64,000 nucleotides of DNA from an uncultured Armatimonadetes bacterium. Lineage in GTDB: Bacteria; Armatimonadota; UBA5829. The notes under the pieces were generated by a model. The model was not told the DNA's origin. It did not search any database and saw only the letters and a program-made list of their open reading frames with translations. Shown piece by piece: positions 41,045 to 55,968 of this stretch. Where the stretch lies: positions 2,346,382 to 2,410,381 of the forward strand of contig CAVQDB010000005.1 in the NCBI GenBank assembly GCA_963711155.1, written 5' to 3'. Numbering within the stretch: the stretch's first letter is position 1; each line of letters starts with the position of its first letter. A program made the position numbers and the translations under genes.

Positions 41045-41986
41045 CTATGAGGCGTAACGGGCGTAACCGCCGCCCCAGTCTTGTGGGTTGTTGCTTTCCA
41101 GGAATTCGAGAGCCTGACGCAGCGAAGGAAGCCCCGTTCTGCCGCCGGGTCTGGTGCACTTGATCGCCGCAACGGCCGCGGCGAAGTCGCAGCACCGGCG
41201 CGTGTCCCAGTTGCGAGCAAGCCCGTAGGCGAACGCGCCATGGAACGTATCGCCGGCGCCGGTCGTGTCTACGACGTCCACCTTGTAGGCCGTTCCGCGA
41301 CCGGTGGAGGCCCCATCCGAGTAGACCCAGCCGTCGCTGCCGAGCGTGACTACGGCCACACTCGGCCCAAGCCCGTGGATCACCGCCAGGGCATTCTCGG
41401 GCTCGTTTTCAAGGCCGAGTTCTCTGGCGTAGTGCCGCGGCGCGATCAGAACGTCCACGTATTTCAGCAACTCCGCATTGGTCTGGTTGGGCGTCAGGTC
41501 GGCTACCACCGGCACGCCGCACTTGCGGCTCTTGCGTGCTGCGGCGAGGGCCAGCTCGGGATATATGTCGTCTACCAGCGTGGCGCCGCAAGACTCGAGG
41601 GGGGACAAGTCAATTGGCGGCAGGCTGCGTCCCAGGCTGGCCCCGCTTCTGTGGAAGATCGTGCGTTCGCCCGATCTCTCATCTACGTGGATGAAGCTGA
41701 ACGGGCTCTCACCACCCGCGATGCGAATCAGCCCGTCCGTCGGGATACCTTCGGCTTCGAGCTCGGCTGCTATGAGATCGCCCACCTGGTCGTCCCCAAG
41801 CAGGCTGAAGAGTCGGCAGTCGGCGCCCAGCCGCGCGCACGCGACCATCGCGGTGGCAACCAGTCCGCCTCCCTGGATGCTGAAACCACTCACCAGCGCC
41901 ATGTCGCCCCACGGAACCTGGGGCGAGACCACTATGTAGTCAAGACACGAAATACCTGCGCCGGCTATGCAGGGACGTTCGCTCAC
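41045..41986 (-). CDS. PfkB-family carbohydrate kinase
   Basis: GGGLVATAMVACARLG and VDTTGAGDTFHGAF PfkB signatures; GAGGAG RBS before the GTG. Confidence 0.92.
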   Translation of the reverse strand: MSERPCIAGAGISCLDYIVVSPQVPWGDMALVSGFSIQGGGLVATAMVACARLGADCRLFSLLGDDQVGDLIAAELEAEGIPTDGLIRIAGGESPFSFIHVDERSGERTIFHRSGASLGRSLPPIDLSPLESCGATLVDDIYPELALAAARKSRKCGVPVVADLTPNQTNAELLKYVDVLIAPRHYARELGLENEPENALAVIHGLGPSVAVVTLGSDGWVYSDGASTGRGTAYKVDVVDTTGAGDTFHGAFAYGLARNWDTRRCCDFAAAVAAIKCTRPGGRTGLPSLRQALEFLESNNPQDWGGGYARYAS

Positions 41987-42213: not shown

Positions 42214-43561
42214 ATGAGACACGACGAACTCAGAGCCAAAGTATACGAACGCCTATCTGAACTGCCGATCCTGGATGCCCACACGCATCTGGTCGATGGT
42301 AAACTCGCCGCGCGCGGTCTTCACGATGTCCTGCTGTATCACATGGCGGTCAGCGACCTCTACGCGGCGGGCTGCCCGAGCGGAGCAAGGCTGACTTGCT
42401 ATCCCGGTTGGCCGAGCGAACAGGAAGCGCACTTCCGCATCAAAGAGGCGCTGCCCTACCTGAAATACGTTCGGGGCACGGCGATCAGTTACGGCATACG
42501 GGTGATCCTGCGCGATCTCTACGGCATCGCTACGCCGGTTGACGAGAGCAACTGGGAAGGCATCGATGCGATGATCCGCGAGCGGGCCGACGATCGGTCC
42601 TGGCAGCGACAGGTGATCGACAAGGCTCACGTGAAGCGCATCTGCACCGAGATCGCGCGCCGCGAAGGCGGCTCGAGACGACGATATCCTGCAGTACTCC
42701 CTGGAATGGGCTTTCTTCACGCGCTGCCAGTGGGGTGAGTTCGACACCGCGCTGTATGAGCTCGAAAGATGTTGGGGAAAGACGCCCGACAGCCCCATGC
42801 CGATCGGCTCGGGTTCCAGGCCGCCGACCGAGCGGGTAATCAAGTCGGTTGACGACGTGAAGCAGGCGGTCGAGCTGGTACGTGAGTCAGATCCCGATAG
42901 ACCGGGTCATCTCGACGGCGACGCACATCTCCACCGACATCGACTTCAAGTCGGTGACCGACAGCGAGATGCAGGCGGCGATTGCGGCAACGGGCCAGCG
43001 CCGGGCCTGACGAGCGAGACATCTACGCCTCTTACGTCAACGAGGTGTTCCTGACCGAACTGGAGGCCAAGCTCGGGGACCGCCTGGTCTTTCAGTTCAG
43101 CTTCGGCGCGGAGCCCCTGCCCTATGAGACCGCCAGCCGGCTTTCGCAGAAGACAATCGCGCAGGTCGCCGAGATGATAGCGCGGCATCCGAAACTGCAT
43201 TTCCAGTGCTTCGCTTTCGAGCCGGCACGCCAACCAGTCCATGTGCACCCTGGCGCGCGAGCTGCCGAACTTCTCTCTGGCGGGCTACTGGTGGCACAAC
43301 TTCTTCCCGGGCGCCATCCGGCAGGTCATGCAGGAAAGGCTGGATATGCTGCCCACCAACAAGCAGATAGGGTTCTTCTCGGACGCCTACTGCGTCGAAT
43401 GGACCTACGCAAAGACGGTGATAGTGAAGCAGGCGATGGCGGAGGTGTTGACCGACAAGGTCGCCCAGGGCCAGTACGATGTTGACCTGGCGATCGACAT
43501 CGCCGCAGAGATTCTCTACCAGACTCCTCAATCACTGCTGGGTATGGTCCCGGCGAACTAA
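42214..43561 (+). CDS. Uronate-isomerase-like amidohydrolase-fold protein; apparent frameshifts near 42677, 42875, 42987 and 43213
   Basis: LPILDAHTH (HxH metal motif), FQFSFGAE, LARELPNFSLAGYWWHNFF, FFSDAYCVEW; cytoplasmic (no signal peptide). Confidence 0.7.
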
Positions 43562-43798: not shown

Positions 43799-44576
43799 AT
43801 GAACAATTCAGAGCTATTCGTCCCGGAACGATGGGACAAGATAGTGGCCATGCTGGACCAGAAGGGCAGGGCAACCGTCGAGGAACTGGCGGAGTTTTTC
43901 GGCGTCTCCAGAAGCACCATACGCCGGGATCTTCTGGAGATGCATCAACAGAACCTGCTCAGGCGCACTCGAGGCGGAGCCGTCAGGGCGCAGATGGTGC
44001 GCGTTCGATCGACCGGTGGCCGAAAGTGGAACGATCAACGTCGATGTCAAGGAGAAGATAGGCAAGGCGGCAGCGGCTTTCATATCGCCCGGCGAGACCG
44101 TCATGCTGGACGCCGGCTCAACGACAGCCCAGGTCGTCAGGCATCTTCAGTCCTCGAACCTGACTCTGGTGACGAACTCGTTCGATGCGGTCATCTCAGC
44201 AATGTCGAAGCCTGAGATCGACCTGCTCATGGTCGGCGGCCTCGTGAGGGTCCACGGCGGAGCTACGGTCGGCCCCACGGCTGAGGACCAGATCCGCCTG
44301 TTCAAAGCGGACACCGCGGTGCTGGGGATGAACGGCGTTTCGCCGGATGATGGCTTGACGACGCCCAATCTGCTGGTGGCCCAGATCAAGCGGCAGATGA
44401 TCGCGCAGTCCAACAGGCTGATACTGGTCGCGGATCACACCAAGCTCGGGGTATCGGCGCTGTGCAGGGTCGCGCCGATGGAGACCGTGGAGGTGCTCGT
44501 CACTGACGAAGACGCCGACCCTGAGATACTCGATGCCATACGGGCGCTCGGCGTCGAGGTAGTGGTGGCCAAGTAG
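43799..44576 (+). CDS. DeoR/GlpR-family transcriptional regulator; apparent frameshift near 43998
   Basis: HTH VEELAEFFGVSRSTIRRDL..RTRGGA; sensor domain MLDAGSTT, VTNS, ADHTKLG. Confidence 0.92.
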
Positions 44577-44578
44577 TA

Positions 44579-45481
44579 TCAGACTGTGCCGACGCTGCCC
44601 AGCTCGTGCATCCAGCGGCTGACCACTTTCGCGACTGCCTCTTTTGCATCCACGAGCGTGTGAGCCCACCACGCTTTTCCATTGCCGCGCGCTACGGCAT
44701 CCTGGATCGCGTTCAGATAGGCCCGGCCGATCTCGCTGGCCACGTTGACCTTGCTTATACCGATCTCAATCGCGCGGCGAAGCTGGTCAGGATGGGTACC
44801 GGATCCTCCGTGGAGGACGAGCGGAACGCGCGTTGCCTTCTTGATAGCCTCCAGCAGCTCGAACTCAAGCACAGGACGCTGCGTGTAGATTCCGTGCGCG
44901 TTACCTATCGCGACGGCAAGTGCATCGACCCCGGTTCGCTCGACGAACTCAGCGGCCATGGCGGGATCCGTCAGGGAGTGGCCATTTCGTCCCTCTACGG
45001 CCGCGTCGTCAACCCTGCCTACCGCTCCCAGCTCACCCTCAACGGTGACGCCCTTGGGATGGGCCATATCGACTACCATCTTCGTGAGTGCTACGTTCTC
45101 CTCGAAGTCGAAGGAGGACGCGTCGATCATCACCGAGGGAAAACCTGCTTCGATGCACTCCTCGACCAGGTCGACGTCCTCCGCGTGGTCGAGATGCAGG
45201 CAGACGGGAACATCGGCTGACAGCGCAACAGACTGCACTATCTCCACCAGCATCTTGGCGCCGAGCAGCGGGATCTCCCACGGACCGGTGATGAACATCA
45301 CAGGCGAGCGGAGAGCCGAGCCGGTCTCCACTATTGCCTGCGCCGTTTCGGCATTGCAGAAATTGAACGCTCCCACGGCGTAGTGCCCGTCCTGGGCATC
45401 GTACAGCATCTGCTCCAGTCCTACAAGACAGTGCGAACCTGACGAGGACCGTTTAGGCTCCGCTCCGACTATGCTGCTCAT
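44579..45481 (-). CDS. Class II (metal-dependent) fructose/tagatose-bisphosphate-type aldolase
   Basis: CLHLDH, SVMIDAS, VEGELG, AVAIGNAHG, LVLHGGSG, KVNV; GGAG RBS. Confidence 0.93.
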   Translation of the reverse strand: MSSIVGAEPKRSSSGSHCLVGLEQMLYDAQDGHYAVGAFNFCNAETAQAIVETGSALRSPVMFITGPWEIPLLGAKMLVEIVQSVALSADVPVCLHLDHAEDVDLVEECIEAGFPSVMIDASSFDFEENVALTKMVVDMAHPKGVTVEGELGAVGRVDDAAVEGRNGHSLTDPAMAAEFVERTGVDALAVAIGNAHGIYTQRPVLEFELLEAIKKATRVPLVLHGGSGTHPDQLRRAIEIGISKVNVASEIGRAYLNAIQDAVARGNGKAWWAHTLVDAKEAVAKVVSRWMHELGSVGTV

Positions 45482-45772: not shown

Positions 45773-47994
45773 TCAGGACAGTATCTGGATGTCCTCATAC
45801 GGGTTGACGTACATGTACCTTGGTATCGCCGTCCCGTACGATATGACCGTTGACCACGACGTTCTGGCCGTAGTAGGGGAATGGCCAGACATAGGAGGTC
45901 TTGACCAGTAGATCACCACCGGAACCGTCGTTTATGTTGAACCAACCGAATATTTCGTCCGAGGCGGTGACCATGCCTCCGCATCTTATGTAGAGGCCGT
46001 CAAGCGGCGCGCCTGTGCCGGTGAGTATCGGCCTCAGGATCGTTCCAACCGGCTTGAGCGGCGTGACGCTCTCGACCTTGGTCATTGGTGCGGTAACCGA
46101 CATGACCAGGGTATTGTTGAAGCGGCCGGAGTCTGCCGCCGGTAGGATCGTGGCCGTGATATGGACCTTGTCGCCCACCGGCGGAGCAGCGGCGCCCAGG
46201 AAATCGGAGTATGGAGTGTAGGCGTCGGGGCACTCCACCAGCATGCCGGCCGAGCGGTCGGCCGCTTCCGCAAAGAACTCGACCTCGCCGCCGATGGGAT
46301 CCTCGACCACCTTGGTGACCACGGCATCAGTCTCAACAAAGCTGTAGAGACCGGCCTTTCGTGCGTCGCCAATTGTGCTAGAGATGACAGGCACGCCGTG
46401 ATCGACAAGCTCGAAGTCATCCAGGAAGACCTTGTCGTTGTTGTAGATGTTCATGCCGACATCCCAGAATAGCTTCTCAGTATCGGGACCTGTGACAAAG
46501 TCAATCGTCATCCGGCCCCATTCAGTCTGGAGGTTGGCATACAGCGGAGTGTGGTGCGTGAAGCCGGCGTAGGTCCCATCCGCCTTGCGCTCCTCTATCC
46601 CGCCGTCTAGAGCGTTGCCAGACCACACTCCTTCGGTTCTATACCACAGAGTAGCGGTATATCGGTGATTGGGCAGGCACGATACGGTCTGGTTGATATG
46701 GCTCAGTATCGCGCCGTTCGAGCCGGTGCACACCGCGCAATAGTCGCCGGCATGCGGCGAATCAGTCGTTACGTCGAAGTCTACCCCTACCTCGCCCGGG
46801 TGTCCGGGATCGGTATTGGATGTGTTCCAGGCAATCAGGTTGCCCAGCTCAAAGCCAGGGTTGAACAGCGCTCCAGGAGGGCCAAGCTTCCACACGTGAA
46901 CGTCGTCAAGATAGAACTTCTCGCTGGAGCCACCCACCATGTTGGCGCCGAAGGTCCAGTTGCCCTTCCTCGTGTAGGGAGGGGTGGCGTCCGCGGTCTG
47001 GTAGGTATAGGATGTGTGAACCCAGCTCGGGTCACTGGTACATGTGACGACATCGGTGCGGAGTTCACTGAGCTGCGCATAGGTGGCGCCGTCGTAGTCG
47101 GTACTCGTGGAATCTGATGTCCACGATGGCAGGCTGGGCTCCAGTTGCCCAGGGGCCGACCGTCTTGTAGTAGTATTCGATCTGGTACACTGTGCCGGGA
47201 TCCAGATCGAAATAGGACGAAGTGAGGGTGCTGACACCGTTGGCTGAGCCGCCGATCCCCTCGGCGCCGAAGTCGCCCGCATGCGCCGCTTCGGCCGCGG
47301 CCTGCCACGTGACGTACGGCGGGTAGCCACCCACGTTCCACGCCGTCAACGTACCGGTCTCGAAATCGCAGTTCACCGGCGGACCGGGATTGGGGGGCGG
47401 AGGAGGAGTCACTTTTTCGAGATCGAAATCGTCGAAGTAGATCGAGTCGCCAGCGGCGCCGCCGCCCTGGTACGTGTTGAGATACAATCCGCCGGAAGTG
47501 TCGCTCTCGCCGGTGTTGAAGGTGAAGGACACCCGCATCCAGCTCGGGGACGCGCCGAGATTGGTCAGCACTTTGTTCCAGGCTCCGTTGATATACAACT
47601 GAACCTGGCAGATATTGCCCGCGCCCCAGCCGGAACCGCTGGTCTTGTACCAGAATGAGACAGTGTAGTCTGAGTTCGGATCCAGCGGCACATCAACCTG
47701 CTGAAGTCCGACGGGGGAAGCACCGCCGTAGTCGTAGCCCTGAATGCAATACGATCCGGTGTGACCGCCCGGCGCGACTGTAAAGACCGTATACTGGTAG
47801 CCGTCCCAGTTGCAGCTCCACGGGGTGTCCGCGCTGGTCATGTAACTCGTCGGTCCCGGACCCGGCGCGGTACCGGACAGGGTTTGTGTCCCACCCTCGA
47901 CGCCCGGTTCCAGAAACAGATTCGCGCAGGCGGCAGGAATCGCCAAGGCCAGACATAGGGCTATCGCTGCAGCCATAGGTGCAAATCTCTTCAT
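45773..47994 (-). CDS. Secreted non-catalytic protein with three CBM4/9-like (galactose-binding-fold) modules and a conserved C-terminal domain; apparent frameshifts at 47100 and 45819
   Basis: Signal peptide MKRFAPMAAAIALCLALA, then three repeats of N..FE.G....W ... H.G.Y/F ... Y......YKT/YRT ... W...S/T ... YFDD/YLDD/FLDD. Removing one base at 45819 gives the ending YVNPYEDIQILS*; uncorrected, the ORF ends at 45795. Confidence 0.75.
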
Positions 47995-48038
47995 TTGCTT
48001 TTCTCTCCTCTCCGATTACACTCTTGTTCTGCTGTAGT

Positions 48039-48307
48039 GCTCGCTTTGTTGCCTCGCTGGAGGCGAGCGAGCTTGTTTTGAAGGGTCTTATCGCTAATCC
48101 ACGATAGTGGATTCCACCGCATCACCAGGACTGAGCCTGGTGTGCATGGAGGCACACTGACTTTGCGTTCGTCAACGAACCCCCCTTTCGCCTCGTTCTC
48201 GACTAGTTGCTTCCGCCTCGTTGTCCAAGGCGGAAGCGGGCCCGTTCCGTCAGTCCGTTACCAGACAAACTCCGGCCACTAACCAGGAATGTATGGACGG
48301 ACGGAAC
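48039..48307. ncRNA. Candidate structured RNA / cis-regulatory leader (seven hairpins) between the pilin-like and CBM genes
   Basis: Stems at 48039-48072, 48096-48113, 48123-48142, 48140-48157, 48167-48180, 48209-48237 and 48244-48307; no known family recognised. Confidence 0.35.
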
Positions 48308-48343
48308 CTGCCCAAACGCAACGCCACCCGGACAGACCGGGCG

Positions 48344-49117
48344 CTACATCTTCGAGCCAAACGGCGGATAGGAACGCAGCCATTCCTTCCTGAACTTCTG
48401 CTGCCAGTAGGTGGGGTCACCGCGGTTGCCGCAGTCGGTATTCACGGCTGGGTCCCACCACATCCACTCCAGCGGCGTCGTGCCCAGCGTGTCGTACAGG
48501 TAGACGGACTTGACGTGTCCGTCCACGAACGCGACATTCATCCTGCCGAAATGATAGAACGGCGCGTAGAGCGGTATGTTCTGGCGCAGGGCCATCTTGA
48601 AATCGCATGTCCAGATTCCGCCCTTGACCTCGCCGAGGGCGATGATCTGCGTCGGCCGCGGATACTCGGATATACGGTGCAGATGACGAAGCTGAGGGTC
48701 CGAGTCGTTGGACGTCACTTCCTGATTCAGGCCGTAGCTGCTGGGAATATCGTGTGTTATGTCCGAATCGGTGTACCAGGTGGCTGCATCTCGTATCATA
48801 GCCGGACACATGTAGGCTTTTCTGCTTCTAATGTAGGGGTAGAGAAGCAGCCGGCCCGATTTCCTGTCGGGATAGTCCGGCGGGTCTGTGTCGTACTCGT
48901 GCTGAATGCACGGCACCATGTATCCGTGGTATTCATCAGCATAGAGCAGCATGGCGTTACCGAAGGTCTTGATGTTGCCGTAGCATGCCTTCGCCTGGCC
49001 GGCCCTCTTGGCATTGAGGAACACCGGAAACAGGATAGCTGCCAGTATCGCGATTATGGTAATCACCACCAGCAGCTCGATCAGAGTGAACCCGCTTCCA
49101 CTTTTCCTGCCGCACAT
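48344..49117 (-). CDS. Prepilin-type N-terminal cleavage/methylation protein with H-X9-DG motif (DUF1559-like pseudopilin)
   Basis: G|FTLIELLVVITIIAILAAILFPVF class III signal, SYGLN, and HFGRMNVAFVDGHVK (H-X9-DG); GGAGG RBS before the ATG at 49117. Confidence 0.93.
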   Translation of the reverse strand: MCGRKSGSGFTLIELLVVITIIAILAAILFPVFLNAKRAGQAKACYGNIKTFGNAMLLYADEYHGYMVPCIQHEYDTDPPDYPDRKSGRLLLYPYIRSRKAYMCPAMIRDAATWYTDSDITHDIPSSYGLNQEVTSNDSDPQLRHLHRISEYPRPTQIIALGEVKGGIWTCDFKMALRQNIPLYAPFYHFGRMNVAFVDGHVKSVYLYDTLGTTPLEWMWWDPAVNTDCGNRGDPTYWQQKFRKEWLRSYPPFGSKM

Positions 49118-49196
49118 TTTGACCTCCACCCGCATTGGCTCAGCCATTGTGATCCAGACCAGCTAGATCACACCCCCAGATCGTGGACTGCCCAGA

Positions 49197-49216
49197 AACA
49201 CGCATTCATGCGCGTT
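49197..49216. promoter_or_regulatory. Candidate operator, most symmetric copy
   Basis: AAC-A-CGCA-TTCA-TGCG-C-GTT, just downstream of the pilin-gene promoter. Confidence 0.55.
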
Positions 49217-49245
49217 CGTGCTCACATTGCATTCCAGTACCTTGT

Positions 49246-49274
49246 ATTATCGCCCACAAATGGCCAGTTGTCAA
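49246..49274 (-). promoter_or_regulatory. sigma70-type promoter for the pilin-like gene
   Basis: TTGACA-N17-GATAAT. Confidence 0.7.
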
Positions 49275-49453
49275 GGCCCCAGCGCGACAAAACAGCATTT
49301 ATTCGCTGCACGATCCGCTTCCTCATCTCGTCGTTTGCAGCGTTTTTCCACGGTTTGGGCACACTTCAAACACTGCAAGTCGCGTGCCATAACCCCCAGT
49401 CGTGCCAAGCATCGCGCATATTCGCGCATCGGCACGCGCAATACGTGGCGGAC

Positions 49454-51944
49454 CTATCGGAGCGCGTCGTTCAGTACTGTGACTATCTCCGTGGCATACA
49501 CTACGGGCGCGCCGTTATATGAGATCGCGCCGGTGACACTCACAAACCGACCGGCGGTTGCGGAACCTGACCAGGACAACGTGCTCACGGTCAGGCCCGC
49601 GGCATCAGAGCCGTCGGTCAGGACGAACGAGCTCGGCGTCACCGAACCGGCCTTCACCATCCCCCACACACGCACATACAGACCGTTGAGCATCAACTGC
49701 TTCGCCCAGGCGTTGCGCACGCCCATCGAACGAACGCTGCCGGGGCCGGTGCGAGTGATGTCCGTTACCAGAATCCGAGACTCATTGGCCGACATCACCT
49801 GCACCGAGCCTACAAGGTTCACCATCCCCGTCGCGGGATAGCTCGTGCACAGAAGCCGAATACCGCTGATCCCATCGGGTTCCTCGATATAGCCAAGGCT
49901 CCCCGATGTCCAGTAGAGCACCTTGTCCGCGAGCTTCACGATCGTGCCGCCGGGCAGGCCCTTCACCGACGCAATCGGCCGATTCGGCGAGACTATCCTA
50001 TAAACCTGAGTGTGCTCGACGGACTCGGCATTGCCGACCGTATCTACGGCGAAGTATCGGAGCATCGTGTCGGCAATAAGCTGTATCGGGCCGGAGTAGA
50101 CGGTCGAAGCAGTCGTCGGCTCGGAACCGTTCGTGGTGTAGTAGATGACGCCGGGCTCGCTCATCGTCAACTCGACCGTGAGGGGCTTGTAGACGCCACC
50201 GACCGGGGCCGCGCTCGATGTGGGAATGGTGGTATCGACCCTGAACGGCCCAAAGTCAAGCGTCGTCGGATAGTAGGCCCCGACCTGATTGACCGACCTC
50301 AAGTGCAGGTAGAAGTCCGCGCCCGACGAAGGCGATTGCACCAGAGTACCCGAGTTCCACGTCGCCTCGGACCCGCTCCATGTGTGCGTCGCGCTGGTGT
50401 CCCAGGCATACTGGAAGGCCGAGAGGCTGCCCGGGCCGAAGCCGAGGGGGTTGCTGAACGTGAATGGCGAGCCCATCGGGTAGTACTGGCCGGTGTTCCT
50501 GTCGCAGGCGACGGTTAGGCCCACGGCGGGCGCGGCGGGAAGGGTGCAGGCGGTGAACAGAGGAGTCCTCAGGCTCGGCGACGCGCCGTTGGTTGCGATC
50601 ACCTGGAAGCTGTACTGCGTGTTGGGGCTCAGACCGACCTGCGTCCAGGAGGTCGTGTTGGCGGAGACGGTTTCCCTCAGCGTGGCGGGCATGTCCGTTC
50701 CGGCATCGACGTAGACGGCGAAGCCGGTCTCGGTGGTCGAGTTGTCCTGCCAGGTCCAGGTGGCCCTGGCAGGGCCGATATCGGTGACGCCGGTGTTGGA
50801 AGGGTCCGCGGGCGGGATCGGCACGTCGGAGGTCTTGGAGCGGAGTATGTCCAGATAGGTCGTGCCGTAGCCGGTGTAGTAGAGGCCGTTGCACGTGGGC
50901 GAGCAGCCGGGGTTGAGCGGCAGGGCCGTGTCGATTGTGCGCGTCGAGCTTCCCGAGCCCGAAGGCTCGATCTGCGTGTCCTCGTGCCACTCGTTCCACG
51001 AAGTGACGATCATCGTGCCGCGCGAGTTGCTGAGCACGGCTTTGTCGAGCAGGGCGGAGAACATCGACCCCTCCGAGTAGCTGTCGCTGATCTTCTTTCT
51101 GGACATGGGGTTGCTGCCCGATGCTACTTCGGTGTTGTTGAAGCCCGGACCGACGCCGGGATAGTAGTCTATCCCCGAGTTCGCCGCCAGGGTCTTCCAC
51201 TGGTCGCTGTATGTCTTCCAGGTGTTGAGATTGCTCGTTGACACGTAGCTTCCGGCGCCGCAGTTTTTGAGGTTGCCGTAGACGTCGTAGTTGGTGACCG
51301 CATCCATCAGGCTGCAGCGCGTCGTATTGGAGTTCGATGACGATCCCCACACCTCATCGCCTATGATGTAGACCTGGTAGCCCTTGGCCGAGGCGGCACT
51401 GCGTATATTGCTGATGTACGTAGTGAGGTTCGCCGTGCTCATGGCGCGCGTCACGTAGATTCCTATAACCGGTTTGTTGTCTATCTTGTAGTAGCTGGAC
51501 CTGCTGAAGTAGTTGTCACAGACGTAGCTCGTCTGCTCGTATACGTTACTGAGCGTGATGGCGTCAACTTCGTAGAACAGAGCGAGCTTGAGGCCGCCGA
51601 TATCGGGGTTGGGGAACATGCAGTTCCGAATTGTCCAGTCCTCGTTGGTTCCCTGGCCCCAGTAGCTGCACATGAAGAAGTCGATTCCACAGCTTCTGGC
51701 CCACAGGAAGTGGCTGCTGACGGTGGAGCTGTCGTGGCAGTTGTCACCATCCAAGGTACGGGGCCTCTTGTGGAAGAAGGTACCACCTGATTGACGAGTA
51801 GAGATTGGGGGAGCTGTGGAAGTAGTTGTCGCCGTACCACGGGTAGTAGTAGGCGCCGACGTTGAACTCGGCACACCAACACGCCGAGCGGCAGGCGGCA
51901 AGCAGCGCGATGCTGACCGCGATGATCCAACTGCTCGTCCTCAT
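49454..51944 (-). CDS. Secreted GH99-like (endo-alpha-mannanase-like) enzyme + FN3 + chitobiase/HEX C-terminal-like domain + conserved C-terminal domain; apparent frameshift near 51745
   Basis: AYYYPWYG, GIDFF..SYWG, LFYE, KIDNKPV, PGVGPGFN and VTSWNEWHEDTQIEP (GH99 motif); YYTTNGSEPTTASTVYSGPI; signal peptide present. Confidence 0.8.
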
Positions 51945-51962: not shown

Positions 51963-54113
51963 CTACCGACCGACGATAACGTCAACCTTGCCGGCGGAAT
52001 GGAATACCTTCACCAGTCCATTGTCGGCATACGACCATCCATAGTCCTTCCCCAACTTGCTGACGCGGCGCAGCGCCTTCCCGTTGCACTCTACGGATTT
52101 CGGCGGCGCCGCCACTACCAATCTATCGGTGCTCTCGCGTGCTGTTCCATAGTGCACGCCCTTTGAATCATATCGGATCGACATCAACGGCGAGGATACC
52201 CGCACGAGGTGGTTCTCGCCCTTCGGCGCCATCTCGGGCAGCGTCCCCATCGCGTAGACGTAGGCCGTCGGCGCCCACATGTTGTTGCACCACCACATAT
52301 CGTTCGATGCCTGGACCGGCCCGCCGCCCATGAGCAAGATGAAGCCGTTCTGTTCGGTGTAATACTGCCCGGCGTTGAGGAAGTGGTAGACCATCTGCTT
52401 GTGTTCGGGCCTGCCGGTAGCCTCGTAGAGGTCCGCCTCGACCATCGACATGTGAAAGCCGTGGTAGGGCATCACGACGTAGCAGACGGTCTGCTCCGCG
52501 ATGCCGCGCTCGCCGTTGCAGTCCTTGGCGCCAAAGTGCTCATAGATCCAGGACCGCAGTTGTTCGGAGAGCTTGACGTACTCGGGATGCTTGTCTCGCC
52601 GCGTGAGCAGCAGCCGTATCGCGTTCATGGGCACGTAGCCGGAGAAGTTCTCGGTTTCCGGGCCCTTGTAGTGGCACCATTCGAGATTGACGTTGGAGGG
52701 AACGTCGCCGAATATGTTGAGCCATCGATAGCTCTTGCACGGGACGTCCACAAGCCACTGCTCGGCTCGCCTGGCCGCGGCCGAGTATGCCGGCTTGCCG
52801 GTCGTGGCGCCGACCTCGTCGAGAAACGCGATATTGTCCAGGACGTTGGCGGAGAAGTCGTCGTTGGGCTTGCCGTCGCGGGGGTTGACTCGGTAGTCCC
52901 AGTGGCCATCGGGCAACTGCAGCCTCAGGAGCGCGTCCGCCATGCCGGCGCAGTAGGAGAGATACTTCGACTTGCCGGTCAGATGGTAGAGGCGCATGCA
53001 TCGTGATCCCGACCGCGCCCTGTTCCTCCAATGAGATCAAGTCGCCGCCGAGGTTCTCGTCCTTCACCTCGCCAACGTCGCCGTAGGGCCAGAGGAAGAT
53101 GGTCTTGCCCTCCACGTCGCCGACGACCTTGCCCTGGTTGACTTTGGTGATGGAAAGGCCCCCACCCTTCCAGTCCTTGGGGATCACGTGCGCAGGGAAG
53201 AGCAGCCAGTCGGCGAGCTGCTCGGCGCAATCGAGGCCCCGCTTGTCGCCGGTGAACATGTAGTAGTCCAGGAAGCCCGTGTTGTAGAAGTGAATTCCTG
53301 CGGGATGTAGTTGGTCGGGTTGCCGACGGTCCCGTTGAGGTTGATCGTGCAGGCGTAGACGTAGGGCGGCCACTTGCGGCCTTCCTCGTCGCGCAGCCAG
53401 TTGCCCACGGCGTTGTCGGCGGCCCAGAAAACGAACTCGCAGGGGCGAGTGATCATGTCCTTGTAGGGCCAGCGGGACAGGACGCGGCCGCTGGAATCGT
53501 GCGCGACGTTCTGCATTCCGTAGAGCCTCGTGTCGAACGGCGTCTGGCTCACCTTGATATTGGAGAACGACGCGCCGGCGTAGCGCGCGGCGACGCCGAC
53601 GGTCCCGGCGTAGAGCTGGCCGAAGAGAATGCCCTGGAGCGCGGGCTTGCCGTCGAGACTGGCCAGGAACTGCGTGCCGGCGAGCATGACTTTGAGATGG
53701 CGCTTGCCAGGACTGGGGTCCTGCAGAGGGCAGACGTTGCAGAGCGTCTCGTTGTCGCCCGAGATCAGGTAGTAGGAGATCGTGTAGAGGTCCTCTTCCG
53801 TCGGGCCGTTCCACGCCTTGTAGGGCTTCTTGTCCAGCACGCACATGGCGTAGTTCTCGGGGTTCACGTAGCCCAGCACAAACCCGACGCGGGCGGACTT
53901 GCCCGTAGGCTGCCAGTCGAGGTCGGCCTCGATGGTGAGATCGCCGCGAACGCCGGGGGCTGTCGCGATGGCCCAGTTATCGCCGGGATCGGCGATTCGA
54001 GCTTGCGAGCCGGCAAGGGTCCAGTTGCCCTGAACTGCGTGCAGTTCGCGCGCGGCCTGGCAGGCGGTTGCCGCAAGAGTGATGCAAGCTGCTGCGATGA
54101 AGACCCTGACCAT
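51963..54113 (-). CDS. Secreted protein: N-terminal ConA/DUF1080-like beta-sandwich + (alpha/alpha)6 barrel; apparent frameshifts near 53300 and 52998
   Basis: ORFs 53184..54113, 52540..53844 and 51963..52997 join. Motifs: GTVGVAARY..ASFSNIKV, DYYMFTGDKRGLD, RLYHLTGKSKYL, LQLPDGHWDY. Confidence 0.65.
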
Positions 54114-54279: not shown

Positions 54280-55968
54280 ATGCCGGTTACTATTGAGCTT
54301 TCGCTATTTGATTGGGTTGTGTGCATCGTCGCATTGGGCGGGAGCATATTCATCGGGCTGTGGCTGTCGCTGAGAGCACGGTCTACGGAGAACAGCGCCG
54401 GGTTCTTTCTCGCGGGCAGATCTCTTACGTGGCCAGTGGTCGGGGCCTCTCTGTTCGCGACGAACATCGGCGCGGAGCACCTGGTAGGGCTCTCGGGCGA
54501 CTCCTACCGCTACGGTCTGTGCGCGGGAACGGTAGAGCTAGCCACAGCTATCTGCCTCGGCTTCGCGGCAGCGGTACTGCTTCCGCACTACTTAAGGAAC
54601 AAGATCTACACGATACCGGAGTTTCTGGAGACGCGCTACAGCCCAAGGGCGCGCGTGGCGTTCTCGGGCCTGATGATCCTGATATGCATCATGACCAAGA
54701 CCGCATTCACGCTCTATGCCGGCGCTCTGGTTCTGCACCTGCTGATCCCCGGCTGGGACATCATGCCCACGATCGTGGTTCTGGGTGGACTTGCCGCGGT
54801 TATCACGATGGTGGGCGGGTTCACGACAGTTGCCTACACGGACACCATACAGACCGTTATCATGCTGGTCGGAAGCGGCACGATGACCATCATCGGGCTG
54901 AATGCAGTCGGAGGGTGGCATGCGCTTACCGTAAAGGCCGCGGCTCTGCCCGCGGCGATGCATCTGGCGCCCAACGCTGCAATGCACATAGCCAGGCCGC
55001 TGACCGACCCGAACTACCCGTTCTGGGGCATCATCATAGGCGCGATCTACGGCGGCATATTCTACTGGGGCATGGACCAGGTCAACGCCCAGCGAATGCT
55101 GGGTGCCAAGAACCTCAACCACGCCCGCTGGGGAGCTATGTTCGCCACGCTTCTCAAGCTCTTTCCGGTGTTCATCTTCGCGCTGCCGGGAGTGATCGCG
55201 CTGGTGCTGTCCAAGGGAAGCCTGCTGGTACCGGACGCGCATGGCCACGAGCACACACGAGAGACGTTCGCCTGGCTCCTAACCCATCTACTTCCAAGCG
55301 GCATGCGGGGCCTGCTGCTCTCGTCATTGCTAGCCGCGTTGATATCCTCGCTGCTGGCAATCATGAACTCGATGTCAACTATGGCAGTCAGGGACTTCGT
55401 CCTGAGGTTCCGCCCGGACACCAGCGAACAGAGACAGGTCTGGCTCGCGCGAGCGGCGATTGTGGGCGGGGCTTTCCTTGGCGTACTGGCCGCGTATCCG
55501 ATCTACAAGAGTCCCGATGGCATATACAAGTATCTCCAGACCATATCGATATATCTTGCCATGCCCGTAACGCCTGTGATCGCGTTTGGCATCATGTCCA
55601 AGCGGGTGACTATCAAGGGTGCCACGTGGTCGGTGATCGCAGGTGCGGCGGTGGCGGTCATCTATGTTATAGACCAACTCAAGGGCGTAGCGTGGGGCAC
55701 GAAAGCACTTCCGTTCCTGCACTTTGAGTTCCACGGCATCAAGCTGACAGAGAACTACACCCTGCGAGGTCTGTGGGGAACGCTGATCGTGATAGCGGTG
55801 CTGTTCATTGTTTCGGCGTTTACGAAGAAGACTGACAAGGAGGTCCTCGATCATACAACTGTCAACTGGAGGCAGAAGCGCGAGCCGTTCACGGGCATCA
55901 CGGACTGGCGGCTGCACTGGGTGCTGTTGGCGGTAGCCACAGTGCTACTCTACAAGTTCGTCTGGTAG
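54280..55968 (+). CDS. Sodium:solute symporter (SSS/SLC5 family), probable sugar importer
   Basis: Intact 562-aa polytopic membrane protein; FFLAGRSLTWPVVGASLFATNIGAEHLVGL, YTIPEFLETRY, VAYTDTIQ, YWGMDQVNAQRMLGAK. Confidence 0.93.
   Translation: MPVTIELSLFDWVVCIVALGGSIFIGLWLSLRARSTENSAGFFLAGRSLTWPVVGASLFATNIGAEHLVGLSGDSYRYGLCAGTVELATAICLGFAAAVLLPHYLRNKIYTIPEFLETRYSPRARVAFSGLMILICIMTKTAFTLYAGALVLHLLIPGWDIMPTIVVLGGLAAVITMVGGFTTVAYTDTIQTVIMLVGSGTMTIIGLNAVGGWHALTVKAAALPAAMHLAPNAAMHIARPLTDPNYPFWGIIIGAIYGGIFYWGMDQVNAQRMLGAKNLNHARWGAMFATLLKLFPVFIFALPGVIALVLSKGSLLVPDAHGHEHTRETFAWLLTHLLPSGMRGLLLSSLLAALISSLLAIMNSMSTMAVRDFVLRFRPDTSEQRQVWLARAAIVGGAFLGVLAAYPIYKSPDGIYKYLQTISIYLAMPVTPVIAFGIMSKRVTIKGATWSVIAGAAVAVIYVIDQLKGVAWGTKALPFLHFEFHGIKLTENYTLRGLWGTLIVIAVLFIVSAFTKKTDKEVLDHTTVNWRQKREPFTGITDWRLHWVLLAVATVLLYKFVW

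Follow-up and report, generated by a model that had tools for sequence, protein, structure and literature searches.

A conserved pairing of an H-X9-DG prepilin-like gene with a multi-CBM gene in a glycan locus of an uncultured Armatimonadota bacterium

We analysed a 64,000-nucleotide stretch of the genome of an uncultured Armatimonadota bacterium (the window; C5:2346382-2410381 in an assembly of 5.64 Mb and 5 contigs), in which an H-X9-DG prepilin-like gene is followed by the gene of a secreted protein with three carbohydrate-binding modules (CBM). In the orthogroup subfamily to which this pilin-like protein belongs, the link between the pilin gene and the CBM gene is tight, and the conserved gene order makes a functional partnership of the two predicted products well supported. 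An even chance is given to the proposal that the core of the system is a two-gene module, consisting of the prepilin-like protein and a non-catalytic CBM4_9 protein with a predicted tandem oligonucleotide/oligosaccharide-binding (OB) fold, which would operate within a DeoR-regulated glycan locus by the whole mechanism set out below. The original prediction for this DNA had described three co-oriented genes, encoding a glycoside hydrolase family 99 (GH99)-like enzyme, the prepilin-like protein and the triple-CBM protein; all three lie on the minus strand and were recovered with Pfam or TIGR matches above cut-off. The genes and the elements belonging to the central pair are as follows.

49454-51944, minus strand: GH99-like gene, whole (Pfam and translation)
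49246-49274, minus strand: sigma-70-like promoter match TTGACA-17-GATAAT, 11/12, roughly 100 nt 5' of the pilin start (consensus scan, a pattern match only)
48344-49147, minus strand: H-X9-DG prepilin-like gene (N_methyl and TIGR04294 matches)
45795-47994, minus strand: CBM gene, whole (one gene across two frames)
47065-47994, minus strand: CBM gene, 5' part with signal peptide, CBM4_9 module 1 and first half of module 2 (49% identity to residues 2-306 of the orthologue in metagenomic locus L096)
45795-47110, minus strand: CBM gene, 3' part, which completes module 2 and adds module 3 and the predicted tandem-OB C-terminal domain (54% identity to L096 residues 333-730)

The pilin-like gene and its CBM partner

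The N-terminus of the pilin-like protein reads G|FTLIE, a prepilin cleavage and methylation site with Glu at +5, and is matched by N_methyl (PF07963; 33.4 bits, cut-off 21.2) and TIGR02532 (29.3 bits, cut-off 16.3). The C-terminal H-X9-DG motif is detected at residues 196-215 by TIGR04294 (25.5 bits, cut-off 19). Among 70 relatives, residues D209 and H211, the segment F20-E24 and one Cys pair are invariant, while H199 and G210 are shared by at least 90% of them. The AlphaFold2 (AF2) model (pLDDT 92.6) contains a 50-residue alpha1 helix and a head of about 190 amino acids, and a Foldseek search of the PDB matched nothing beyond alpha1, leaving the head with no PDB fold match. Profile likeness to PilA, GspG and geopilin is likewise confined to alpha1. 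The GspG equivalog (TIGR01710), whose cut-off is 88.85 bits, gave 35.4 bits and aligned with residues 18-71 only, and the protein scores under every equivalog cut-off in NCBIfam. No match to PF07596 (SBP_bac_10/DUF1559) was obtained at an E value of 0.01 or below; a precomputed match to this family is also missing in the 19 closest relatives and is present in relatives at 38% identity or less. The orthogroup is therefore regarded as a divergent subfamily.

An identical-sequence look-up of the 267-aa pilin open reading frame (ORF) returned no match; the gene as called elsewhere (P0001) encodes 257 aa, with the start at M11. The family to which it belongs is large, with 45 matches in its own genome (E value 1e-10 or below; about 46 scattered loci by profile) and from 5 to at least 63 matches per genome in 40 relatives. 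When these 40 relatives were searched for an orthologue, only paralogue-level matches at 40% identity or less were found, and the orthogroup itself comes from metagenomes only (about 19 proteins, 38-71% identity). Hundreds of kb separate the pilin-like gene from the nearest assembly genes, and it lies in neither a gsp nor another assembly operon. The more remote family members adjoin an alginate-lyase-type gene or FG-GAP/ASPIC genes.

In the partner protein, module 1 is matched by CBM_4_9 (PF02018) with 54 bits against a cut-off of 25.9, which places it in family 4/9, and modules 2 and 3 were picked up by a profile derived from the modules of this genome. The orthologues carry precomputed PF02018 matches, and the one in L096 is intact (744 aa) and aligns with both halves of the window gene. 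The domain layout leaves no space for a catalytic domain, and the protein is thus considered non-catalytic; its modules are predicted polysaccharide binders.

Comparison with metagenomic loci of the same orthogroup indicates which genes travel together. In L096, L102 and L103, whose pilins are 49-54% identical to that of the window, the gene order is the same as here: the pilin is followed by a multi-CBM4_9 protein with the C-terminal domain, then by an aldolase, a DeoR regulator, an isomerase-like gene and a PfkB kinase (pilin -> CBM protein -> aldolase <- DeoR <- isomerase-like -> PfkB). A protein of 717-731 aa precedes the pilin in all three, and a sodium:solute symporter (SSF) is also present in L103. 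In L098 and L099 the surroundings differ, yet the gene after the pilin again encodes a protein with this type of CBM module (E value 5e-32), there fused to GHL6/GH42M; the partner in L098 has no C-terminal domain. In L100 and L101, tandem pilins come after a small gene, with a protein bearing the C-terminal domain two genes upstream; the gene just upstream of the pilin in L100 encodes 235 aa and carries a CBM-like module (E value 3.8e-6). L107 ends at a contig boundary and reads SSF, 718-aa protein, GH99-like protein with the C-terminal domain, and pilin N-terminus. In every complete metagenomic locus of the orthogroup, a gene encoding a CBM module of this type adjoins the pilin, and three also keep the aldolase, DeoR, isomerase and PfkB genes. 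The conserved core is the pilin followed by the CBM protein.

Two further observations were made on these loci. Downstream of the two or three tandem same-orthogroup pilins in L100:8001-11707 and L101:8001-12694 lies a gene for a 665-aa DUF6785 protein, a partner type unlike the CBM protein. The spacer between the pilin and CBM genes is long (165-350 nt) in L096, L102, L103, L098 and the window, where it occupies 47995-48343 and includes weak terminator-like hairpins. The long spacer with its hairpins may mean that the pilin and CBM genes are expressed separately or with attenuation.

Adjacency within genomes and the shared C-terminal domain

The same CBM module type occurs at 6 loci of the window's own genome, 4 of which are strong multi-module loci. 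At each of these 4, a co-oriented pilin gene lies 0-704 nt away, and the pilins of the four cassettes belong to at least two divergent lineages. It might be argued that no specific partnership exists, in that pilin, CBM and C-terminal-domain genes are all common in 'secretome islands' and would come together by clustering and cassette duplication, the pilin having a generic role in the envelope. Two of the four cassettes are indeed related by duplication, at least 45 pilin paralogues are spread over the genome, and the enrichment of pilin genes beside genes for the C-terminal domain, described below, is modest (2.5-3.5-fold). Against this, the adjacency of pilin and CBM genes is kept at 45-54% pilin identity on contigs whose other neighbours differ, all four strong loci have it against a per-gene chance of about 1.6%, and the tight pairs are nearly all co-oriented with short gaps. 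Chance clustering is accordingly judged quite unlikely, and a specific pairing of pilin and CBM protein is preferred.

Besides their position, the two proteins flanking the pilin have in common a C-terminal domain (CTD) of about 190 aa, which in the window is carried by these two genes only:

49457-50011, minus strand: CTD of the GH99-like protein (CTD profile, E value 9e-31; AF2)
45798-46415, minus strand: CTD of the CBM protein (final CTD profile, E value 2e-18)

Direct comparison of the two copies by BLASTP is weak (E value 2e-4 over 70 aa); a profile made from the first-round matches of the GH99 CTD alone nevertheless detects the CBM CTD with a genome-wide E value of 1.9e-5, and a reversed-sequence control of the CTD profile gave 0 matches. 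The sharing which the original prediction had noticed is thus real. It is not a signature of the system, since the CTD occurs in about 157 genes of the genome, at the end of very diverse secreted proteins, and is class-wide. Its end lies within 5 residues of the stop codon in 57 of the 91 full-length cases, and in some proteins the domain is internal or present in 2-3 copies. No Pfam or NCBIfam domain model was found for 39 CTDs, which gave weak OB-type matches only (Pfam RMI2, tRNA_anti-codon, BOF). The AF2 model (pLDDT 89.4) comprises two beta-barrels, and the best Foldseek matches are the OB folds of HIN-200, RPA, Stn1/Ten1 and YgiW, with a probability of about 1.0, E values of only 1e-3 to 1e-2 and a TM-score for the tandem of 0.43. 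The profile retrieves 8,018 representative clusters (50% identity) among 1.84 billion proteins. Within the phylum, the domain is plentiful in most genomes of the same class (G015 and G038 are without it and G017 nearly so) and almost missing in the remainder; it marks the secretome of one Armatimonadota class. A literature search found no paper describing this CTD.

The position and breadth of this domain invite comparison with the CTD of the type IX secretion system, which is likewise found at the extreme C-terminus of diverse secreted proteins (here about 157 per genome) in one lineage. The two differ in that the present domain of about 190 aa is, according to its AF2 model, a probable tandem OB fold rather than an immunoglobulin-like beta-sandwich, in that none of the 39 CTDs matches a sorting domain in Pfam or NCBIfam, and in that it is sometimes internal or present in 2-3 copies. 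The CTD is a candidate sorting or anchoring signal.

It had been expected that pilin genes would stand beside genes for CTD proteins more often than chance allows, and this was borne out. In the window's own genome, 8 pilin genes have an adjoining CTD gene against 3.0 expected (p=0.006, gene-order permutation). For two complete genomes the corresponding counts are 8 of 50 pilin genes against about 2.3 (G039) and 2 of 13 against about 0.4 (G003), both by an approximate gene-order expectation. The adjacency is thus about 3-fold (2.5-3.5-fold) above chance, and significant in two of the three genomes checked. Tests on gene order were preferred to position-based permutation of pilin–CTD distances, which yielded weak signals only, because random placements can land inside long CTD genes.

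Several points weigh against tying the pilins closely to glycan proteins. A position-based null for G039 gives only p=0.06-0.08, the stronger figure being the approximate gene-order expectation. About 80% of pilin-like genes adjoin neither CTD nor CBM genes, and about 95% of CTD genes are not beside pilins. Pilins and CTDs number at least 63 and 4 in genome G017 (8.2 Mb, 1 contig) and 56 and 0 in G038; remote members of the pilin family adjoin non-glycan secreted proteins (FG-GAP/ASPIC). G039 and G003 each contain one weak match to the CBM module type, and the CBM–pilin rule was not replicated there. Finally, contact of the pilin with the CBM protein or the CTD, the surface location and glycan binding are all inferred from sequence. 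Since pilin-rich genomes with few or no CTDs exist (G017, G038), the two expansions are evolutionarily separable, and with most pilins and CTD genes lying apart, the pilin–CTD link is best described as loose.

The surrounding locus and its reading frames

The GH99-like gene, immediately upstream of the pilin, is composed of the following parts.

51744-51944, minus strand: 5' part, with signal peptide (MRTSSWIIAVSIALLAAC..., in which LAAC resembles a lipobox) and the beginning of the GH99 domain, YYYPWYG (three-frame translation; alignment to L014, L015 and L016, whose N-termini are intact)
49454-51754, minus strand: main ORF, with GH99/WbsX-like catalytic domain, FN3, unassigned module, CHB_HEX_C_1/Fn3_assoc and CTD (Pfam, CTD profile)

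The product matches Pfam Glyco_hydro_99 (PF16317) with 49.5 bits against a cut-off of 33, as well as WbsX, fn3 and CHB_HEX_C_1/Fn3_assoc, and has the NEWHE (WNEWHE) motif of GH99 in the sequence WNEWHEDTQIEP, consistent with membership of the family. The catalytic glutamates are presumably those of this motif, and the product is a putative endo-mannosidase-type enzyme. The gene is missing from L096 and L103 and apparently also from L097 and L106, and is kept in L107; it is thus an optional member of the locus. None was found in 39 of 40 relatives, and at the 80 genome loci with GH99-like relatives that were searched no pilin lies within 8 kb. We had considered the gene a unique insertion, and dropped this idea once L107 showed the GH99 -> pilin order too. 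Of the three-gene unit originally proposed, the pilin–CBM pair is therefore the conserved part and the GH99-like gene an optional insert.

Around these three genes lie the regulatory, catabolic and transport genes of the locus:

41045-41986, minus strand: PfkB-family sugar kinase (Pfam PfkB, 155.8 bits; synteny in L096, L102, L103)
42214-43561, plus strand: UxaC-like isomerase gene (intact orthologues of 446-461 aa; weak UxaC match in the L096 orthologue; synteny)
43799-44576, plus strand: DeoR-family regulator (Pfam; synteny in L096, L102, L103)
44579-45481, minus strand: class II aldolase, the next gene downstream after that of the CBM protein (Pfam F_bP_aldolase, 306.8 bits; kept in L096, L102, L103)
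51963-54113, minus strand: 717-aa secreted protein (tblastn against the 717-aa protein of L096, 68.6% identity over 719 aa)
54280-55968, plus strand: SSF symporter, divergent from the secreted-protein genes (Pfam SSF, 233.8 bits; same arrangement in L103, L107)

Neither Pfam nor a PDB sequence search gave a significant match for the 717-aa protein. Its N-terminal half is lectin-like and its other half faintly resembles a GH127-like (alpha/alpha)6 fold, with faint GH127/GH88-like matches; it may belong to a new glycoside-hydrolase-like family and act as the main enzyme of the locus. The protein is conserved and always stands upstream of the pilin (L096:3262-7592, as two tandem copies; L097:543-2696; L103:5545-7740; L106:4809-6959; L107:6633-8789). 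Most other window genes are of glycoside-hydrolase type, with matches to GH42M/GHL6/ThuA, GH2, GHL10, GH95, GH65N, GtaA, AXE1 and Pec_lyase.

Many genes of this region are interrupted in their reading frame. At least 6 frame breaks occur between 42 and 54 kb, with at least 4 indels within 8 kb:

near 51750, minus strand: break in the GH99-like gene, with the signal peptide and YYYPWYG in a frame other than that of the main ORF (three-frame translation)
near 47100, minus strand: break in the CBM gene, inside module 2 (one gene across two frames)
about 52998-53250, minus strand: two compensating frameshifts in the gene of the 717-aa protein (translation)
43799-44576, plus strand: break in the DeoR-family regulator gene, with helix-turn-helix and DeoRC sensor domain in two overlapping frames
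42214-43561, plus strand: fragmented UxaC-like isomerase gene (ORF fragments)

Taken at face value, so many breaks in the GH99, CBM, 717-aa, DeoR and isomerase genes would point to a decaying locus, with genuine frameshifts and a copy made up of pseudogenes. Premature stops are absent apart from the indels, however, identity to intact orthologues is high, and the orthologues are intact across the breaks (comparison with L096 for the CBM and 717-aa genes). Breaks of the same kind affect conserved secretion genes in other parts of the genome, and an estimated completeness of 60.6% for 5 contigs and 5.6 Mb is typical of indel-rich long-read assemblies. On these grounds decay of the locus is highly improbable, and the breaks are most likely assembly indels rather than signs of gene decay. 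The assembly resembles an unpolished long-read product, and ORF-based readings of this genome therefore need care. The splitting of conserved genes (GspE-type ATPase, secretin, PilT) between frames was seen genome-wide, as in these examples:

C2:101305-102289, C5:745865-746357 and C5:821007-821472, strand not stated: split conserved genes (ORF reading)

Proposed role and relation to known systems

As the original prediction had anticipated, a prepilin peptidase and assembly genes of type II secretion system (T2SS) or type IV pilus (T4P) type are present, in several clusters on C2 and C5:

C5:1850026-1855779, strand not stated: prepilin peptidase in a PilB/PilT/PilC/pilin cluster (genome scan)
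C2:170591-175505 and C2:100094-104893, strand not stated: two secretin-GspE-GspF clusters, one directly followed by pilin-like genes (genome scan)
C2:444933-450652, strand not stated: GspF-GspE-pilin cluster, in which no secretin was detected (genome scan)
C5:2203866-2207699, strand not stated: three tandem secretin genes on one strand (genome scan)

In the proposed mechanism, PilD would cut the pilin-like protein at G|F, and a T2SS/T4P-type machine would set it in the envelope, either as a (pseudo)pilus subunit or as a membrane stalk. There it would serve as a locus-specific partner which brings the CBM protein to the cell surface or holds it there, and it might render the same service to the CTD-bearing GH99 enzyme. 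The CBM modules would bind polysaccharide, which the secreted enzymes would cut near the cell. The SSF symporter would take up the released sugar, and the isomerase, kinase and aldolase would catabolise it under DeoR control. A role of the pilin and CBM protein in capturing glycan at the surface is, as we infer it, plausible.

The original prediction suggested that the pilin-like protein and the CBM protein may belong to a machine for glycan capture or import, in the role which SusD/SusE have in Bacteroidota. The absence which had prompted comparison with Sus systems holds: none of the 37 window proteins scanned is a TonB-dependent receptor, SusD or a solute-binding protein, and the single SSF symporter is the lone transporter. 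The glycan-capture system which it envisaged stands insofar as the pilin and CBM protein are a conserved, presumably functional pair in a glycan locus (synteny, four cassettes); an import role of the pilin like that of SusC/D is unsupported. The adjoining symporter explains uptake of a released monosaccharide more simply. In Bacteroidota polysaccharide utilization loci, secreted proteins which bind and cut glycans are likewise encoded alongside regulatory, transport and catabolic functions, and the non-catalytic multi-CBM protein resembles SusE/F in role. The window differs from these loci (SusC/SusD/SusE-F) in having no TonB-dependent transporter or SusD and in presumably relying for import on an SSF symporter, which implies uptake of monosaccharide rather than oligosaccharide.

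A stronger form of the proposal would make each H-X9-DG protein a subunit, specific to its locus, of a pseudopilus or short pilus, on which CBM proteins and enzymes dock, possibly via the tandem-OB CTD, in a cellulosome-like display taking the place of the Sus outer-membrane complex. We regard this as unlikely; if true, it would provide Armatimonadota, and by extension bacteria of the Planctomycetes-Verrucomicrobia-Chlamydiae group, with a pilus-based system of display and capture, and would supply a function for one of the largest bacterial paralogue families that are still uncharacterised.

The same secretion genes could be read in another way. The H-X9-DG protein might be an export adaptor, i.e., a cargo-specific T2SS pseudopilin which recognises neighbouring secreted proteins in the periplasm, perhaps by their CTD, and pushes them through the secretin, with no role in glycan binding or capture. 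The genome has at least two secretin-GspE-GspF-pseudopilin clusters besides the three tandem secretin genes, GspG is the best NCBIfam match for the N-terminus of the pilin-like protein, and a C-terminal domain common to about 157 secreted proteins resembles a sorting signal. Moreover, family members adjoin varied secreted proteins, e.g., polysaccharide lyases and FG-GAP/ASPIC proteins (PMC8567305). The GspG score, however, is far under its cut-off (35 vs 88.85 bits) and comes from the alpha1 helix only. About 46 pilin loci face 157 CTD proteins, most CTD genes have no adjoining pilin, and pilin-rich genomes without CTDs exist. In addition, the closest association of the pilin is with CBM modules and not with the CTD, which the partner in L098 does not have. 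We therefore hold an export adaptor to be doubtful and retain the surface pairing of pilin and CBM protein as the working proposal.

The window protein shares with T2SS pseudopilins (GspG-K) and type IV pilins a prepilin peptidase site, the Glu at +5 and a matching alpha1, and assembly genes are present in the genome. It differs from them in being encoded outside an assembly operon, in its head of about 190 aa with no solved structural relative, and in scoring under the equivalog cut-offs.

Pilus-linked adhesion to glycans is known from cellulolytic bacteria: the tāpirins of Caldicellulosiruptor adjoin a T4P locus, and Ruminococcus albus has cellulose-binding pilins. These systems and those of Planctomycetes have in common with the present one a filament or pilin-type protein tied, genetically or physically, to polysaccharide binding at the surface; here, the binding modules would reside on a separate CBM protein beside an orphan pilin gene, and the arrangement is known from genes alone. 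In the Planctomycetes P. limnophila and G. obscuriglobus, dextran binds pili-like fibres (PMC5394234), and according to a 2025 review the players in fibre-mediated uptake are still unknown (PMC12673574).

The closest relatives of the pilin-like protein are found in the H-X9-DG/DUF1559 families (PF07596, TIGR04294) of Planctomycetota, Verrucomicrobiota, Lentisphaerota and Armatimonadota. Common to both are a class III signal peptide, a long alpha1, the motif C..N.KQ.. and the C-terminal H-X9-DG, as well as tens of scattered paralogues per genome, whose neighbours often encode secreted proteins (PMC8567305). One planctomycete has 68 such paralogues and another 91 (PMC10632474, PMC8567305). The DUF1559/N_methyl genes of Planctomycetes are scattered and flanked by genes for proteins with signal peptides, and their products have been detected in membrane fractions (PMC8567305, PMC10632474). 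The function of the H-X9-DG/DUF1559 proteins is unknown (PMC10632474, PMC12673574). The orthogroup of the window differs in missing PF07596, in having a partner which can be named, i.e., the CBM4_9-type protein, and in its conserved catabolic locus, which is not described in the literature searched. No paper linking H-X9-DG pilins to CBM proteins was found in that search.

The H-X9-DG/DUF1559 proteins are among the largest paralogue families of Planctomycetota, Verrucomicrobiota and Armatimonadota, and the pairing described here bears on how glycan degraders without Sus systems hold polysaccharides at the cell surface. The locus offers a defined and conserved pair, a pilin-like protein and a multi-CBM protein, which can be expressed to examine whether they bind one another and glycans.

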